Below are positions 1,348-32,816 of a DNA stretch of 64,000 bases, piece by piece (position 1 is the stretch's first letter; each line of letters opens with the position of its first letter). Under the pieces are notes generated by a model. That model saw only the letters and a list, made by a program, of their open reading frames with translations. It made no database searches and was not told where the DNA came from. The stretch is from a virus (Duplodnaviria > Caudoviricetes), in IMG/VR virus record IMGVR_UViG_3300029305_003192; one strand, given 5' to 3'. Made by a program: the position numbers and the translations under genes.

Positions 1348-1611
1348 TTAAGATCCTCTATTTTTAACCTTATGGTCTCTCACATAAATTGCAAGAAATG
1401 ATGCGAGGTCATTAAACGGACATCCTGGATGGTCAATACCACGCTTGACTCCTGAATGAATATCACCATAGTTTGGTATTGGATAAATATCAATGGTATG
1501 AATTCTTTTCGAAACTTTGGCTCGGTATATGTCCAGGGCTACTCGCTTTGCAGGTTTCTTAGAAACCTTATCAAACAGGGTCTCTGTCAACATCATTTGC
1601 GTAATCAACAC
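1348..1611 (-). CDS. Hypothetical protein
   Basis: 87-aa ORF overlapping the end of the upstream gene, followed by hairpin 1306-1336. Start uncertain. Confidence 0.5.
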   Translation of the reverse strand: MLITQMMLTETLFDKVSKKPAKRVALDIYRAKVSKRIHTIDIYPIPNYGDIHSGVKRGIDHPGCPFNDLASFLAIYVRDHKVKNRGS

Positions 1612-3223
1612 TTTCGTCTCTCTGCTGGAGGAGGTGTGTAAATACCTTCACGAATTCAACGAAGTAAGGTACCGGATTAGGCTTGCCGACGCCACATACA
1701 GTGTTCATGATAGCAATAGCCGCGGTATCGTCTGTGTAGTTTCTACCATCGATAGTGATAACCGGAATATCAGTACATTCAACCTTGGATACCTTCAGTT
1801 CAGGAATACCCAATGCTCTGCATACGACAGATGTGTTATGAAGTACATCATCAATGCTGCACTTGTCAGCAACACCGAAGAAGAATGTATAATCTTCAGT
1901 AGCGAACTTCTTACCATCTTCTTCACGGATGGTGATAGGACGGTCAACTGCAAAGATAACTGGAATGAGTGTGCACTCATCAGCCTTGCAGTACTTCATC
2001 TTAGCATTGACAAATGCGATATCGGCAACGTATGGAATTGAATCCATTACCGAGCCATTTACGATTGGGAATGATGCTGGAGAACCGTGCTGTGTCTTAA
2101 GCTTGATATATGGTCCATCAAGCCAGTCAGCATTTACGCAGAGACAAGAGTGGTTGAAGATTCCATTACCAATCTTAAGCTGGTTTATGGAACCACCGCA
2201 GTTACATTTCTCATGTGGGATATAGAATCTGTCCAGCACATAAAGAAGTGTCTTCTTATACATAGCCGGAGTGAACTTTCTCCACATCTTGGTCATTGCC
2301 TCAATTGTTGCGGAATAGTTTGTGAACTGATTACCGTCAACGAGTGCTCTGAGAAGTTCAACGTTTACCTCGCCGTTTTCTCTGAGAAGAACGGATGTGG
2401 AAGCATTGCCGTTTGTTTCGAACTTCTGCATGGATGTGTCTTCTGTAGGTTCTACTACATTTAAGCTTTCACCTACAGTCTCGCCGATAGCAGCACCTGT
2501 TGTTTCGTCCGGACACTTACCCGGACAGTGTGGACATTTCTGATTTGCCATAGTGGGATCCTCCTTATGATTTTTTGATTTATCGTGTCGGTAGTTCTGA
2601 ATTCTACCGCAAAGATACAATAACTTGTCTGAAGTATCGAGATATTTGTCCTTCATCTCCTGACTAAAATAGTCAGCACTCGTTCTACTTCTTAATGTAC
2701 CGGCAATGGAGTATACCAGGTTTTCGAGTAACTGAAGGTTCTTCATATCATAATGCCAATCCCAGTACTTTTCTTTAGCTGCCATACTGATACCATTGTC
2801 GTCTGAACACGAAGTGTTATAACCGAGAATCCCAGCTAATCTCTGGGTGCCCTCATTGAATAAATCGGATTCGATATCATAATATAATACATTATACAGA
2901 GCGCCTTCCCAAGGATCCTTCTTACACTCGCGTTTATAGACACGTTCGCTAATAGCAATCTTCTTCTCGAGATCACGCAACGCCTCGAGTAAGAACTTCG
3001 GAATCTTATTGGTATAGTCCATGATAATGATATCACAAACGGCGCGGTTAGTATTTCCTGTAAACGGAAATTCCATCAGACTATGATAACAACCTTCATC
3101 TGTCATATCGAACGCGACGCAGAGCTTCTGCATGAGTTCGAAGAATTTGTATGAACCCCATTCATATTTGTGAAGGAGTTCTTCAAGTATCTTGGCACAA
3201 TCGCCAGTATGAATTTCGCTCAT
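1571..3223 (-). CDS. Hypothetical protein, apparent fusion of two genes (internal start at 2551)
   Basis: 550 aa with SD AAGGAGG; a second AAGGAGG sits 8 nt before the in-frame ATG at 2551 (MANQKCPHCPGKC). Confidence 0.8.
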   Translation of the reverse strand: MSEIHTGDCAKILEELLHKYEWGSYKFFELMQKLCVAFDMTDEGCYHSLMEFPFTGNTNRAVCDIIIMDYTNKIPKFLLEALRDLEKKIAISERVYKRECKKDPWEGALYNVLYYDIESDLFNEGTQRLAGILGYNTSCSDDNGISMAAKEKYWDWHYDMKNLQLLENLVYSIAGTLRSRTSADYFSQEMKDKYLDTSDKLLYLCGRIQNYRHDKSKNHKEDPTMANQKCPHCPGKCPDETTGAAIGETVGESLNVVEPTEDTSMQKFETNGNASTSVLLRENGEVNVELLRALVDGNQFTNYSATIEAMTKMWRKFTPAMYKKTLLYVLDRFYIPHEKCNCGGSINQLKIGNGIFNHSCLCVNADWLDGPYIKLKTQHGSPASFPIVNGSVMDSIPYVADIAFVNAKMKYCKADECTLIPVIFAVDRPITIREEDGKKFATEDYTFFFGVADKCSIDDVLHNTSVVCRALGIPELKVSKVECTDIPVITIDGRNYTDDTAAIAIMNTVCGVGKPNPVPYFVEFVKVFTHLLQQRDESVDYANDVDRDPV

Positions 3224-3299
3224 AGAGCATCCTCCTTTTATTATAGGTTACAGTAGAGTTGTCATGATAATTTAATTTAACAAGAACGAGAATATAATT

Positions 3300-4925
3300 A
3301 CCGATTAGTAAAGAGATAGAATCTCTCGGTATGTTTCGTCTATGAAGATACCGGACGTGGCATACCTCGTCGAATAATCCCATGGCGACTACAATCGTGG
3401 ACTAACCAACCACAAGGGTTGTAGTGAGGCCGGGTACAAAATCATACACTTCAGTATGAGAGTAGTTTCCGGGAGAAGGCCTATACGGGTGGGGCTTGCC
3501 CCAACTTTCCAAATGTATCAGAGAGTCAGTGAGATTTCGAGAGCTCTCTGGAGTTTATAATAGTTATATAGAAACCTTTAATTACTGTGATACATATAAC
3601 ACAGCATGCTTAATAAGATAAACATCTATTGGTTATCATTAACCAATATTGGGAGAACTTGATTATATACTTCTCTATGGAGTGCGTCACGAAAGCCTAG
3701 TTGGCAATAGTCTTCATGAAGTATATAAACGAGCAATTCCACCACTCACCATGTGTGAAAGAACGGCTAGTACCACTTGGGGCGGATGCATATCCCTAGG
3801 AAGATATGTGTACGTATTCGCAGAAAGAGCCCTATGAAGGTGAGGTACCTGTAGCAGACCGCTATTAACCTAACTTTGAAGCAGGATTAATAGTTGGAAC
3901 TCTGTGATGGCTGCCGCGGAGAAGTCGGGCGATGGCAAGTTCGTCATGCTCCGTATATGATTCTTCGGAGTCATATGTTGGAAGAATAGTAGGGTGATAA
4001 GTCTCTGGAGCACATGAGTAAATATGAAGAAGTAACAGTGGATAGATTATACGTTTGGTATCAGGCTTCAATGATGAACCACGTATCAGTATTACGACAT
4101 TAAAAGTTCGATGTTCACGAATGTCGGGTACGCTCAATGTTCGCTATCAACAGTCTCAAATATTAAAGCTAACTTCTATATGATGCAGATTATTTACATA
4201 GTGGATTAAGGACCCATTATGTAAGTAATTTTCACTTTGTCTTAAAATCGCCGGCCTGCGTCCGGCTTTAAAGATTGGCAGTGCACGAAGTGCTCTAGTG
4301 CGACAGCACTACTATTGTCCGGCTCTGTCTGAGAATTACATCTCTACCGTTCCGGCATAGCCGTTGAGCGGGAGAGTGGAATTCGAGTCACAGCAACGTA
4401 AAAGCAATAAGGGTAAAAGCAAAATGCCGGACCCTTGCGGAGCGTCGCTGGCGGACATCAGGGGAGCCAGCAGCGGAGATAGCACACCGCAGGTGAAGCT
4501 CGCCGCAGGCAATGTGCATATCCATGAGACGAAGCCTATTATAAATTGATAACAATTGTTGACAGAGTCATATATACATTTGCAGCTCTTTCGACCGTTC
4601 CAATAAAGGTCGGAAGAGTGCAAATCAATACAAATATATGGCTTCGGCTGTCGCAATATTGTTACTATATTTTGGAAGGTTGGGGGAGAAGGTCCCTAGG
4701 AGGAGGGGTATCCCCTCCTTAACCTGCACCGTCCTCGTATAGTACCAACTCTTTTCTTCCAACAGCATTTCTTATACCAGCCCTTTTGTACCAACTGAAA
4801 GAGTTGGTACTATTTAGCGTCCGACCTCCTTTAAAGGACCCCTCGTTTACATGGAAAGGAAGAAGAGGGAGGACGCGTTCCAATGTATTATTAAGAAAAA
4901 TAATGGCCGCCGCGTCAGCGGCATA
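3300..4925 (+). ncRNA. Candidate very large structured non-coding RNA (or structured origin region)
   Basis: No credible ORF for ~1.7 kb. Dense helices whose G-U pairs work on the + strand, a cUUCGg tetraloop at 3963-3968, and a 15-bp long-range helix 3499-3513/4671-4685. Confidence 0.5.
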
Positions 4926-4967
4926 TTGTTCTTTGAATAGTAGATATTTAATATGGACTTCAAAGAG

Positions 4968-4977
4968 TATATATCAT
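4968..4977 (+). promoter_or_regulatory. Early-type promoter motif TATATATCAT
   Basis: The same motif precedes non-structural units at 7154(+), 30044(+), 50569(+), 1292(-), 21397(-), 46531(-), 61935(-) and all four cassettes. Confidence 0.6.
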
Positions 4978-4993
4978 CACATATGAAAGGAAG

Positions 4994-5497
4994 GTGTGTA
5001 TACCAATGAATACACGTAAATTAAGGACTTTGTATTATGGTTATTGGAACGACCAATTACTATGTATATCTACAGAGTTGAAATCTGTGAAGAGTTATCT
5101 GAAGAATACGAGACATTGTGATGGAGAAGCAGTAGATATAGATGAACGGCATAAGAGGTTCGAAGACCTTACAGTAGAGGAAGAGAACCTACTGCTCGCT
5201 AAGTATAACAAAAAATATATCACTGCTAAAGACGGTAGGATAATCCTCAGAGATTTCAATCTCTTCATGGATAATATACTTAATGCCGCAGATACATTAG
5301 AGTTCCTAGATAAGCTATTCAAGTTTAATGGGCTTGTAGATGCTGCTAAGATATGTAGGTACATTCTCGATACACCATATCTCAGAGGTAGACTATTCCA
5401 GAGATTCTTCAATAACCACGACCTTGTGAAGCTTGATGTTATATCATACTTACACATGAAGAAAGAGTGTCCGTCATATATGATGGACGATGAATAA
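4994..5497 (+). CDS. Hypothetical protein
   Basis: 167 aa; SD GAAAGGAAGG; early-type promoter upstream. Confidence 0.8.
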   Translation: MCIPMNTRKLRTLYYGYWNDQLLCISTELKSVKSYLKNTRHCDGEAVDIDERHKRFEDLTVEEENLLLAKYNKKYITAKDGRIILRDFNLFMDNILNAADTLEFLDKLFKFNGLVDAAKICRYILDTPYLRGRLFQRFFNNHDLVKLDVISYLHMKKECPSYMMDDE

Positions 5498-5545
5498 GAT
5501 ATATCCAATGACTATGATGTCATTGGATATTTTTTGTACCAGAGC

Positions 5546-5606
5546 AAAAAATCAATCACCACCAAGGTATCTAGAACCGCCAGGTACGTACCTGGCGGTG
5601 ATTGAT
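5546..5606 (-). terminator. Cassette terminator, copy 1, with invariant loop
   Basis: Stem 5551-5569/5589-5606 plus U-tract on the minus strand. Contains AGAACCGCCAGGTACGTA, identical at 11645 and 39090. Confidence 0.75.
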
Positions 5607-5617
5607 TTATCTGTGCA

Positions 5618-5905
5618 TTATATAATACGCAGATCGAACCCCTCGTCTCTGAGGGTTTTGATAGCTGGATAGAAATCTCTATCCAGCCTGATACACTTAG
5701 AATCGTGTATCATATTTACTATGTACAGAGAAGTGACGCCCAGGAATTCTAATGATTCCTTAATTGCACTGACAACGTCCGATGGCAGCAAAACCACAGA
5801 TGTCGAGTAGATATCGATCGAATGGATCGACGAGTTCGTGAAACCTTTGAAAACCTCCACTCTCGTGGTACTCTTTTCGATAGTATTAATAGATTTCATT
5901 GTCAT
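5618..5905 (-). CDS. Hypothetical protein, cargo of cassette 1
   Basis: 95 aa; SD GCAGAAAGGA; lies between the shared cassette leader and terminator. Confidence 0.8.
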   Translation of the reverse strand: MTMKSINTIEKSTTRVEVFKGFTNSSIHSIDIYSTSVVLLPSDVVSAIKESLEFLGVTSLYIVNMIHDSKCIRLDRDFYPAIKTLRDEGFDLRII

Positions 5906-6032
5906 AAGTACTTCCTTTCTGCCTTATAAAGGCTATGATAGTTTTATTAGTTCGGAGACTATCAACTCCTTTATTCTTACTAATATGATATATATGTCAT
6001 ATACACGGAAATCACGGTGCATAGAAATACCC
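5906..6032 (-). promoter_or_regulatory. Cassette promoter plus pseudoknot leader, copy 1
   Basis: 5976-6032 matches 39597-39653 at 55 of 57 nt. Leader pairings GGAG/CTCC and GATAGT/ACTATC are interleaved. Confidence 0.75.
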
Positions 6033-10929: not shown

Positions 10930-11568
10930 ATGGCAGTAATGCCCCAGTTGGAATATAAAGGTTCGTTTGCTAAGTGCGTTGGTATAAAGGGTACCGATGC
11001 TTATGATATTGCGTTCAATAAACCTATGGAGTACTTCTATAGTGCAGATAACTACACCCATTTTATCAAGGGTTGTGAGAAGATGGTTAGAAGTCACGAA
11101 GATTACTCCAGGTTCAAAGACTATGTAATGAATGTAATCGGTATTGACTTCTGTCAGGTAACGCCAAACGTACGCTTAGGTGATGCTACAATTGAGATGC
11201 ACCATGCATTCTTCAACCTCTATGATCTTTGCGCAATTATTACTAACAAGAGATTGGAATGCGGTGAAAGAGTTAACACATTCACGGTGGCAAACGAAGT
11301 TCTTGATGAACACTTCGCCCTTCATATTCCGGTTGTAATGCTTGCTACGACAAACCACGAGATGGTAACCAATAGAGATATCTGGCTCAACGTTAAGAGT
11401 GGCTTCGGTTATATCTCTCAGTTTATCGAGAAGTATGCTCCATATATGACACCGGAACACAAGTACCGTATAATGACTACAATTAAGCTGTCTTATGAAA
11501 TCGATAGCTTTGATAATAATATCTTTGATGATACAGAAAAAATTAAACGAGTACTTGCGCATACCTAA
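10930..11568 (+). CDS. HNH-like (His-Me finger-like) protein, paralog of 23096..23908
   Basis: C..IEMHH..FNLYD ... EH ... L.TTNHE pattern; GACA-N6-TA promoter at 10891. Confidence 0.6.
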   Translation: MAVMPQLEYKGSFAKCVGIKGTDAYDIAFNKPMEYFYSADNYTHFIKGCEKMVRSHEDYSRFKDYVMNVIGIDFCQVTPNVRLGDATIEMHHAFFNLYDLCAIITNKRLECGERVNTFTVANEVLDEHFALHIPVVMLATTNHEMVTNRDIWLNVKSGFGYISQFIEKYAPYMTPEHKYRIMTTIKLSYEIDSFDNNIFDDTEKIKRVLAHT

Positions 11569-12391: not shown

Positions 12392-12475
12392 CAAATAATA
12401 CCAACGTAAAAACTTAATAGTAATCCCTACTTGTCCAGGGATTACTATTTTAATAGCATAAAGGAGATGTTAGTT

Positions 12476-13243
12476 ATGAAGATAACGTATTTAAAGATTA
12501 GTGGCTGGGATGGTGCAATTCGTTCATTCTATATGTCACTTAACAACTACACACCTGACCTTGAGATGGAAATCAGACTCGGTCAGTTCTACGAGGAGCA
12601 AAATAATGCCATTGATGAGGCTAATGCCCTCGGTCTTACAGATTCTCCACTTTATGGAGCTAAGAAGATGGAGAATGACGTTACTGAATGGTGGGAAGAG
12701 CAGAAACGTAAGCTCATCAAGTTTGGTAACAAGCACATTACATTGCTGAAGTTCCTTGATATCACTATGACGGTACAGGGTCTGCACAGAGGTGCACAGG
12801 ATGACTTTGATGCACATGCCGCAAGATTCAATAGCCGTATTATCAGAACTTCCACAAGAACCAAGAATAATGAGCAGCTTATCGAGCTCTCAGATTTCTA
12901 TAAGGGAAAGATACTCCCATTCCAGGATTTGGATAAAGCTCTTGACCTCCCACGCTTTATTGAGTATGAAGGTACTATGTATCTTAAGACATCACTTGGT
13001 TATGTTAACAAGGCATATATCGGAGATAAGGATGTACGTAGGGGACTTATTCCACTTGCTATTTCATCCAACTTTACAGTCAAGGTACAGGCAATGGAAT
13101 ACTGCCATGTGGTACGTGAGCGTAATATGGATGGTAATGCTCATATCGAACTCAAGCAGCTTATTGAGCAGTCTATCCCAATGATTACTGCACAGGTACC
13201 AGAGTTCACAAGAGAATGGTTTATGAATAGCTGCTTACAGTAG
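12476..13243 (+). CDS. thyX: Divergent ThyX-like flavin-dependent thymidylate synthase family protein
   Basis: H..LLKF, DFDAH...STR, RGLIPLA..S, HVVRER...AHIEL follow the ThyX motif order, but canonical RHR is not intact. Start chosen from SD AAGGAG. Confidence 0.55.
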   Translation: MKITYLKISGWDGAIRSFYMSLNNYTPDLEMEIRLGQFYEEQNNAIDEANALGLTDSPLYGAKKMENDVTEWWEEQKRKLIKFGNKHITLLKFLDITMTVQGLHRGAQDDFDAHAARFNSRIIRTSTRTKNNEQLIELSDFYKGKILPFQDLDKALDLPRFIEYEGTMYLKTSLGYVNKAYIGDKDVRRGLIPLAISSNFTVKVQAMEYCHVVRERNMDGNAHIELKQLIEQSIPMITAQVPEFTREWFMNSCLQ

Positions 13244-30117: not shown

Positions 30118-30603
30118 ATGAGACATCGTAGAATCCCCACTAAGGAGAATTATTATCTCGATATTGCAGAAGCAGTTGCAGGAAGGGGTACATGTATTAG
30201 AAGATGCTTCGGTGCGATTATAGTTAAGGATGACAGAATCATATCCACTGGATATGTTGGAGCACCTAGAGGTGAAGAGCATTGTTGTGATACCGGAAAG
30301 TGTATTCGACATGAATTGAATATACCATCTGGTGAACGATATGAATTATGTAAGAGTGTCCATGCCGAGATGAATGCTATCATAAATGGTACTGCATCAG
30401 ATATGATTGGTTCGACTATGTATTTAGTTGGAAAACACGTCACTGATGACGGCACACTCGGAGAGTATGTGGATGGTACATCACCATGTAAACTGTGTAG
30501 ACGTATGATAATCAATGCACGTATTGCTTATGTGGTAATAAGGAATGCTGATGGTATTACTTGGAGAAAGTATCCCGTATCCGAATTACCTGAATATAAA
30601 TAA
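30118..30603 (+). CDS. dCMP deaminase (Zn-dependent)
   Basis: HAE and PCKLC motifs; GAIIVKDDRIISTGY.G; SD AAGGAGG. Confidence 0.93.
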   Translation: MRHRRIPTKENYYLDIAEAVAGRGTCIRRCFGAIIVKDDRIISTGYVGAPRGEEHCCDTGKCIRHELNIPSGERYELCKSVHAEMNAIINGTASDMIGSTMYLVGKHVTDDGTLGEYVDGTSPCKLCRRMIINARIAYVVIRNADGITWRKYPVSELPEYK

Positions 30604-30636: not shown

Positions 30637-32816
30637 ATGGCAAAGAAATCAATGGATAATATTGAGGTTAAGATGGGAGACCCAACGTGGGTAATTCCAG
30701 CTATCAATAATCTCACTACATATTCGACCGACGAACTTGTTGACCCAGAGGGCAAGTTCTCCAAGTATGCTATTCAGACATACGGTAAACTTGGTTACTT
30801 CACTGGTACAGAATCCGATGATGATTACGAACTTAAAGGCGTAATTGATTGTAAAGACCCGATTCTCAGTGAAGAAATTCAGGCTCTTCGTCGTAAGATT
30901 TATGATATGAATCCAAAGGGTAGGAGATATGGTACTGATATTATATCAGCACATGTATATACCCGTGACTTTGATAATGACTGTAGAGAGGATATGCTTA
31001 CTGGTAAAGGTTTTAGGATATCCAATCACGAGTCGTTCGATAAGAAGAATCAAAAGATACCAGACGGTCTTCAGAGCCCAGAATTCGGTAGTGACTTCGG
31101 CGACGACCTTGAATTTGCAGAAAGATATAGATGTGTATGTGGACTCAAGATGGGTCAGATGTATGAACATGAAATCTGCCCAGAGTGTAATACAGAAGTT
31201 CAGTACTGTGAGGTAGACCTTGAGAAGACTGGATGGATTTTCATCGAGGGTGGATTTAAAGTAATCACACCTATATATTACGCGAAGCTCGAAGCACTCC
31301 TCGGTAAGTATGATAGCCAGGACTCAGTTATCGGAGCAATCATCCGCTGTAACTATAAAGATGCAAAGACAAATGAGGAACTTGATGAAGCTGGTCTTAC
31401 AGATAGAGACCGAGAGATGATTGTTAAGCATCCATTTATCCGTAAAGGTATGGCATGGTTTGAACAGCACATTCTCGAAGTTCTCGATTTCTATAGGAGA
31501 GCTAAGCCCGGTAAGGCTAAATGGTTCGAAGAAATCATTGATAATATAGACAAAGTATTCTGCTCGAGAATACCAGTATATACATCAGTTCTCCGTATGG
31601 AAGCTCCTGGTGCAAAGGATGAGAAGGTATTTAGAACCAAAACTAATACCTGCTATCGTTCAATCATCAGGTCCGCAAACATGATTAATGATTTGGTATC
31701 TCGTCACTATGTAAAGAATGCTGACGATAATGCACACTTTACAACCACTTATGATATCAGTGAAATGACATCAATTGACAGATTCAGCGCTCAGATTCAG
31801 AAGGACCTCAAGGACCTCTTCGAAGAAGAGTTCACAATTCTGTCAGGAAAAGAAGGATATATTCTTGGTAAGGTAGTATCTGGTAGATACAACTTCTCCG
31901 CAAGAAACATCATCATCTCTGGTGGTGCCGACCTTCACTCAGACGAAATCATGGTTTGCTATTCCACATTCATTGAGCTCTTTAGATATGAGCTCACAGC
32001 ATACTATGCTAAATATAATAACTGTACAATATCAGAGGCCAATGATGCAATCCTGAAAGCACAGTCACGATTCGATAAGCAGGTATATTACACCATGCTC
32101 TATATGGTTAATACGAATGATATCCATGTAATAGTTAACAGAAATCCGTTAGCATATAGCGGCTCCCAGTCGTGAGGCTGGTGAGAAAACTCTACTTTAT
32201 ACGGGGAAATGCTAGCCACCTCTTTTGAGGTTCCGTGCTACATTTACAAGCGTTAGCATAATCCGTAGCCAGGTCTCAGTTTACTGAGACAAGGTTCAAC
32301 GACTATCGAAAGGGTAATCCGATACTTACATCGGGTGAGTAACCGAGTAGAGTAGGGCCAAGTGGTAGGTTTCTAGATGATATTAGTCTAGAGTGATTCC
32401 TTTAAACCGAAATGATGAGCATCTCATAAGAGTTTATGAGTTGGTGATATAGTCTACGCAACATGGTAACATGTTGAACCCAGTACTGGGTTGATGGTAA
32501 TTAACGACTACCATTTACTTGCACGGCAATTAACTATGGATCATTCCTTGCACTTCGTATCGTTCATGTTAAATCTGATATTGGAGATAGAACTCTCACC
32601 GTTAATAAGCGTATCCTCATCGTTATGGGTGCAGACTTCGACGGTGACCAGGAGAATATATTCAGAGTATTTGGCGACTCACTTAACGCAACTATTGCGA
32701 GACAGATGAACCCGAGATATACGCTCTTTATCGACAAAAAGAATAATCAACTCAATCGAGCGTTGATGCCTACGAAGGATGAAGCTATCGGCTTCTATAC
32801 CTTCAATAATATCTAA
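30637..32816 (+). CDS. rpoC: Phage RNA polymerase beta'-like subunit (probably non-virion RNAP); spliced join(30637..32149,32527..32816), 600 aa
   Basis: Zn finger CVCG...CPEC and GRYNFSARNII; splicing restores NRNPSINYGS; catalytic GADFDGD is in exon 2; lies in an early-type operon. Confidence 0.9.
32150..32526 (+). ncRNA. Group I self-splicing intron (377 nt, no homing endonuclease ORF)
   Basis: P1 CCGUUA/UAGCGG has the U-G pair at the 5' splice site. P ACGGGGAAA (~32201), Q AATCCGTAGCC (32260), R GTTCAACGACTA (32294), S GATATAGTC (32446), P9 hairpins and terminal G at 32526 are present. Removal restores the reading frame. Confidence 0.93.

Follow-up and report, generated by a model that had tools for sequence, protein, structure and literature searches.

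A predicted 1.4-kb structured non-coding RNA with a switch-like outer frame in an uncultured AR9/PBS1-like jumbo phage

Very large structured RNAs are few (rRNA, RNase P RNA, introns, tmRNA, OLE, ROOL and GOLLD), and they have turned out to hold either central chemistry or unexpected cages. The ROOL and GOLLD cages are built on kissing loops, and GOLLD has been reported to bind ribosomes (PMC12286853). For the jumbo phage AR9, a late promoter consensus, AACA-(6N)-TA/G, and an early promoter consensus have been described (PMC5312081). Here we analyse a stretch of 64,000 nucleotides, hereafter the window, from the virus record IMGVR_UViG_3300029305_003192 (Duplodnaviria; Caudoviricetes; 156.8 kb, about 65% complete), in which an earlier examination of the letters (the sequence-only reading) had pointed to positions 3300-4925 as a candidate giant non-coding RNA (ncRNA) or a structured replication origin. 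Comparison with its relatives shows the locus to be that of a predicted single-copy, non-coding, + strand RNA gene of about 1.4 kb (0.6-1.7 kb across the family), carried by an uncultured AR9/PBS1-like jumbo phage. The proposal of a large, ornate + strand RNA, longer than the ROOL, GOLLD and OLE classes, is thereby supported, because synteny, conservation above that of codon third positions, compensatory changes and strand asymmetry all point to it; a literature search returned no description of this RNA family.

The locus lies in a gap of 1,782 nt without an open reading frame (ORF) at 3224-5005, which is the largest of the 157-kb contig, as had been noticed; by our own ORF calls, the next-largest gaps measure about 1,155 nt each (window coordinates about 64680-65835 and 92905-94060, beyond the window). 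Its flanking genes diverge, a 550-aa ORF on the - strand to the left (1571-3223) and a 163-aa ORF on the + strand to the right (5006-5497), and neither has a protein family match. Syntenic loci were fetched with two anchors, the 550-aa protein beside the gap and a 212-aa marker gene that is conserved, yielding close relatives (L008, L011-L015), a divergent relative (L010, 53% identical in the flanking protein family), three lineages at 77-78% marker identity (L024/L053, L064 and L028-L030) and two at 47-50% (L043 and L044). Going by their record names (JGI, ENA and Logan assemblies), the close relatives come from the ruminant gut. The ORF-free gap is found at the same place in all seven lineages, with a length of 1.7-1.95 kb in the five long ones and 1.0-1.1 kb in the two short ones, and the RNA locus is single copy and fixed in position. 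Among close relatives, 3296-4660 is 98-100% identical, compared with 72-97% at nearby codon third positions; against L010, the RNA core is 75% identical, compared with 46-47% at the third positions of three neighbouring genes. The segment 4241-4660 is 98-99% identical among close relatives and does not align to L010. No reading frame is kept in any lineage, and the longest stop-free frames (42-119 codons) are not shared; a decayed coding sequence, an outcome envisaged in the sequence-only reading, is thus ruled out.

The domain closed by 3499/4685 (1,187 nt, -387 kcal/mol) folds better than dinucleotide-shuffled controls, as had been anticipated, with a z of -6.3; relatives reach -7.6 and -7.2, and two coding controls -1.6 and -3.8. 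The - strand of the same domain has a z of -7.5, and therefore folding energy alone does not give the strand. The + strand, earlier deduced from the G-U positions of the helices, is borne out by polymorphic paired sites in close relatives, at which pairing is kept in 17:6 cases on the + strand and 5:12 on the - strand. Covariation was assessed by predicting a structure from one sequence and scoring it on another over well-aligned columns. From the window to L010, 14/14 double changes are compensatory (expected 6.7, p = 3e-5), from L024 to L064 10/12 (p = 0.01), and in a further structure transfer 9/10, with a weaker signal on the - strand than on the +. The comparison between the window and L010 is not significant over the whole alignment, with the unalignable 4241-4660 included, and is significant on the well-aligned columns. 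Both marks of a large ornate ncRNA, extensive covariation-supported secondary structure and the lack of an ORF, are found here.

Comparison shows an outer frame that is predicted to be common to all lineages and to comprise a conserved AAU, a helix Pa, a switch hairpin, a closing helix of 12-19 bp and a 3' G-tract (all RNA features lie on the + strand). Ahead of it, a first hairpin (3312-3326) is common to L024, L064 and L028 with a compensatory change, and is deleted in L010. Helix Pa (3376-3489) follows the conserved AAU, has 3 bp here and 4-7 bp in relatives, and encloses a variable subdomain of 13-158 nt across lineages; in the window, this subdomain holds a hairpin (3442-3459, loop 3448-3453) whose stem shows two compensatory changes in L010. 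The switch hairpin (3490-3503, pairing 3490-3494 with 3499-3503) has the form S-RGG-CWWR-CCY and carries a compensatory change. A descriptor for this motif, matching at 3489-3502, matches once in each locus and once in the genome, and after every match a helix of 12-19 bp reaches to a distant G-run. In the closing helix (5' arm 3499-3517, 3' arm 4666-4685), the first 12 positions are paired in 72/72 cells over six lineages, 10 positions have changed on both sides, and the arms pair best with their own partner; it encloses about 1,070-1,270 nt in the long forms, 250 nt in L043 and 415 nt in L044. The 3' strand of the switch hairpin is also the start of the closing helix, so that the two helices are mutually exclusive, yet both covary. 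As two exclusive, covarying helices are kept together, strand exchange would take place once the 3' end has been made, and the pair suggests a strand-exchange switch. The frame ends in a G/purine tract (4682-4708), followed by a hairpin (4701-4719); this tract is longer than the closing helix requires, and has the highest G-run score in each relative's 9-20-kb locus; the + strand of the genome has just one other G-run cluster.

Within the frame, an inner conserved core (3520-4240) is shared by the window, L010, L024/L053 and L064, with invariant blocks at 3582, 3620, 3742, 3760, 3819, 4025-4041 and 4107 in the same order in the window, L010, L024 and L064. Three compensatory changes are found in the core helix 3750-3756/4010-4016. 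A predicted kissing contact of 7 bp joins the loops of hairpins 3862-3893 (loop positions 3876-3882) and 4049-4086 (loop positions 4065-4071); it is paired in four lineages, with one compensatory and one G-U change, and both stems covary. Three stems of at least 6 pairs show compensation, compared with 0.6 in shuffled controls (maximum 3 across 60). At 4025-4041, the invariant 17-mer contains successive pentamers complementary to 3449-3453, 3582-3586 and 3742-3746, and might form a triple pseudoknot. L028 has short core blocks only, and the core profile does not detect its interior. Beyond the core, 4241-4660 forms a lineage-specific helical expansion with a compensatory change at 4591/4613. 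The helices proposed earlier at 3499-3513/4671-4685, 3954-3977, 4578-4625, 4187-4231 and 3388-3425 were all recovered; the one at 4352/4430 was not upheld, as folding does not favour it, close relatives have a substitution in it and L010 lacks a counterpart. The UUCG hairpin (3954-3977) is indeed present with a lineage-specific loop, and the 9-nt repeat beside both arms of the closing helix is a feature of its lineage only.

Transcription is predicted to start at about 3296, from an AR9-type late promoter (AACR-N6-TAA) at 3285-3297; the same motif is found 35-55 nt before many genes of this genome, and each of the seven lineages has a match or near-match at the gap's 5' end. The RNA gene would extend over about 1.43 kb (3296-4725), possibly to about 4925. 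Compared with the limits first proposed, 3300-4925, the promoter lies just upstream and the conserved unit ends earlier, near 4725, the remainder (4726-4925) being a variable 3' tail. From promoter to helix end, the seven lineages measure 1,390 (window), 1,333, 1,645, 1,516, 1,690, 620 and 688 nt. Candidates for the 3' end in the window are the hairpin 4701-4719 and a terminator-like hairpin at 4906-4922; L024 has a clear hairpin and U-run directly after the G-tract. The tail also contains hairpins 4788-4810 and 4817-4876 and a 9-nt direct repeat (4743, 4788), between whose copies L011 has a deletion. The downstream 163-aa gene has its own motif of the AR9 early type (4968-4977), and therefore the RNA need not be its leader.

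The leading reading, which we consider about as likely as not, is that the product is a late, stable, trans-acting and end-closed ornate RNA working like ROOL and GOLLD. It would be made by the phage non-virion RNA polymerase in late infection; while synthesis proceeds, the local hairpin at 3490-3503 would hold the 5' arm until the emerging 3' end invades it, closes the long helix and locks the ends. The closed, nuclease-resistant RNA would then act in trans as a compact, probably self-assembling scaffold or ribonucleoprotein (RNP) akin to ROOL and GOLLD that binds or sequesters factors of the host or the phage at a late stage of infection, with peripheral domains gained or lost by lineage. 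A trans-acting body is favoured because over 1 kb of interior structure, distant from the 3' end, is under strong selection, and a predicted kissing loop with a compensatory change, the contact type that builds the ROOL and GOLLD cages, supports this reading. Several points weigh against it: the covariation p-values ignore phylogeny and come from few sequences in only seven lineages; the 5-bp pseudoknot stems are invariant, hence lacking covariation, and do not exceed the shuffle null; and the body is not family-wide, as the short forms lack the inner core and the core profile does not detect it in L028. Since the frame and the G-tract, and not the body, are kept throughout the family, a cis role would suit as well. 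A rather unlikely variant is a new RNA machine, in which the frame would be a co-transcriptional strand-exchange switch (catalytic, or priming replication via the G-tract) with an interchangeable structured cargo of 0.25-1.27 kb; if so, the long forms would be among the largest structured bacterial or phage ncRNAs outside rRNA and introns.

The ornate-RNA reading and a structured origin are not mutually exclusive, and an RNA-primed origin is a lesser but serious candidate. The transcript would be a pre-primer like ColE1 RNA II or the T4 oriF/oriG transcripts: strand exchange timed by folding would free the G-rich strand, the G-tract would form a lasting R-loop or hybrid quadruplex, and DNA synthesis would start in the tail. 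A promoter with a persistent hybrid is the layout of the T4, ColE1 and mitochondrial systems (PMC4412123), and the locus does have a promoter and a G-rich 3' tract, with hairpins and a direct repeat downstream, in a single copy at a fixed position between divergent genes. The features kept across the family (switch, closing helix and G-tract) are those such a role would need, within ColE1 RNA II the 3' profile matches best at the G6 run that immediately precedes the origin, and an AT-rich gap of the Listeria phage LPJP1 contains both a late-type promoter and a cluster of G-runs. Nevertheless, homology to ColE1 RNA II is not supported (chain score p = 0.16 against shuffles; no nhmmer match; no plasmid match), nucleotide skew tracks gene orientation and its four-fold-site version gave no clear signal in this roughly 65%-complete genome, in which RNase H was not found either. 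Moreover, the downstream sequence (GC 40-45%) contains no AT-rich unwinding element, the promoter is of late and not early type, and selection on the 1.2-kb interior would be left unexplained. Should the RNA be a pre-primer, it would point to the replication origin of AR9-like jumbo phages, for which a literature search found no description.

Knotted, invariant cores are typical of catalytic RNAs, and the resemblance of the predicted core to them favours a processing frame or ribozyme, as do the mutually exclusive helices at the junction and a long closing stem, free of sequence constraint in every lineage, around a cargo of variable size. The closing helix would then be a maturation stem, as in pre-rRNA, or a self-cleaving or splicing frame, from which the enclosed 0.25-1.27-kb domain would be released or circularised. 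We find this improbable, as no Rfam ribozyme or intron matches even at E 10 in three lineages, no exons or ORF flank the element, and neither reverse transcriptase nor RNase III was found in the roughly 65%-complete genome. Still less probable is a ribosome decoy, either an rRNA mimic or a 3' AGGAGG-rich tract binding 30S subunits or translation factors; it would account for the several Shine-Dalgarno-like words in the G-tract and for short 16S/23S motif look-alikes seen by eye, and would have a precedent in the ribosome binding reported for GOLLD (PMC12286853). The short forms lack Shine-Dalgarno-like words, however, and the mimic itself, with its peptidyl-transferase and decoding look-alikes, is rejected on the large-subunit rRNA model, which finds no match, and on shuffle tests, in which the colinear chain of conserved blocks does no better than shuffles (16S p = 0.42, 23S p = 0.72). 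Finally, the signals might belong to DNA-level palindromes, protein-binding sites or several small RNAs rather than to one RNA, as the - strand folds about equally well by energy; this is very hard to reconcile with strand-specific G-U-type variation and with a 1.2-kb-range helix and a loop-loop pair that both covary, and we give it hardly any weight.

Searches beyond the family were negative. An Rfam scan, which had been proposed as a check, found no known family at the locus: the window, L024 and L043 give no match at the gathering score or with E values up to 10, L028 gives none with E up to 1, and the covariance models of ROOL (RF03087), GOLLD (RF02032), OLE and raiA remain unmatched in these four. 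The earlier failure to see a group I, group II, tRNA, tmRNA or RNase P signature agrees with our scans: ARAGORN reports no tRNA, either in the window or across the 157-kb contig, no domain V matches and no reverse transcriptase turns up in the roughly 65%-complete genome, and the scan that detects a group I intron at 32140 detects none at the RNA locus, where there are no exons. That intron (RF00028, 56.8 bits, window 32140-32476, +) lies in a 910-nt gap 3' of a 512-aa ORF, and Pfam gave no identification of its host gene. Blastn with the window and with L028 against cultured phages gave no match, GTDB genomes contain no relative of the marker gene, and exact DNA patterns in IMG/VR and JGI metagenomes returned nothing or chance matches in coding sequence. 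No credible match to the family motif was found in AR9, phiR1-37, LPJP1 or two distant IMG/VR phages, and lineage L046 has an 830-nt AT-rich gap without it. The cultured phage LPJP1 (L062:35830-36135) nevertheless offers a testable analogue: before its RNA polymerase beta gene, a late-type motif is accompanied by a double G-run and by GC-richer sequence of about 290 nt, with a weak score to the family frame (p = 0.02). Upstream of the family RNA, L044 has another late-promoter-like unit (3205-3390), which is about 150 nt long and contains hairpins.

Regarding the surrounding genome, an RNA polymerase beta-like gene (1,451 aa) ends at 378, and its best cultured matches, at about 31%, are Listeria phage LPJP1, Staphylococcus jumbo phages and Bacillus PBS1/AR9; in some close relatives, a NUMOD4-HNH homing endonuclease lies beside it (L008:13130-13924, L013:5763-6557). 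The window encodes a ThyX-like thymidylate synthase (12431-13243) and a dCMP deaminase-like protein (30118-30603), and the former suggests thymine-containing DNA, unlike the uracil-DNA of AR9. A very stable hairpin cluster with inverted repeats (5496-5950, z -11) adjoins a 95-aa orphan ORF (5618-5905, - strand) that is present in the window and L008 and absent from L010-L012 and L015; in L024 and L064, its slot holds other small genes (an HTH_17 protein), and the region is a putative exchangeable cassette slot. The L010 counterparts of window 5006-5497 and 10930-11568 are 92-98% identical to the window, compared with 65-78% for their neighbours, and probably reflect recent recombination between lineages.

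Compared with known systems, the RNA resembles group I/II introns, RNase P RNA and 16S/23S rRNA in its size, helix density, probably knotted core and variable expansions; it differs from them in having no model match, exons, P7 or domain V signature, and in its negative rRNA chain test. With ColE1/pMB1 RNA II, T4 oriF/oriG and the mitochondrial G-rich primer (PMC4412123) it would share a promoter, a long folded transcript, alternative helices and a 3' G-run; it differs from them in that neither a counter-transcript nor an unwinding element, RNase H or an origin signal was found in the roughly 65%-complete genome, and in its long forms being 2-3 times longer. Another intergenic RNA from a phage of the same broad clade is the expressed phiR1-37 misc_4 (PMC4848604), which lies in a gap flanked by genes for RNA polymerase beta and an NTP pyrophosphatase; it differs in being about 300 nt long, AT-rich and without the family motif. 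The end of misc_4 (L061:2141-2437) coincides with a cluster of C-runs, which read as G-runs on the opposite strand, and a Ham1-like gene also borders the RNA gap in L028/L029. GOLLD and ROOL (PMC12286853) are likewise phage-encoded, ORF-free and large, with many helices and a conserved and a variable domain, and their kissing loops have a predicted counterpart here. They often adjoin tRNA islands, whereas no tRNA was found in the 157-kb contig; this RNA furthermore differs in its ends closed by a switchable helix, its 3' G-tract and its late promoter for the phage RNA polymerase. At 1.4-1.7 kb, compared with 659 nt for ROOL env-120 and about 830 nt for GOLLD env-38, it has about twice the size of these largest ornate phage RNAs. 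Its natural short (0.6-0.7 kb) and long (1.3-1.7 kb) forms define a minimal frame and its expansion sites, and its mutually exclusive covarying helices make folding, structure and activity testable in vitro without the host. Thus, the putative family is new to Rfam and was not found in cultured phages, and it would represent a known kind of RNA with an unusual size and a switch-like frame.
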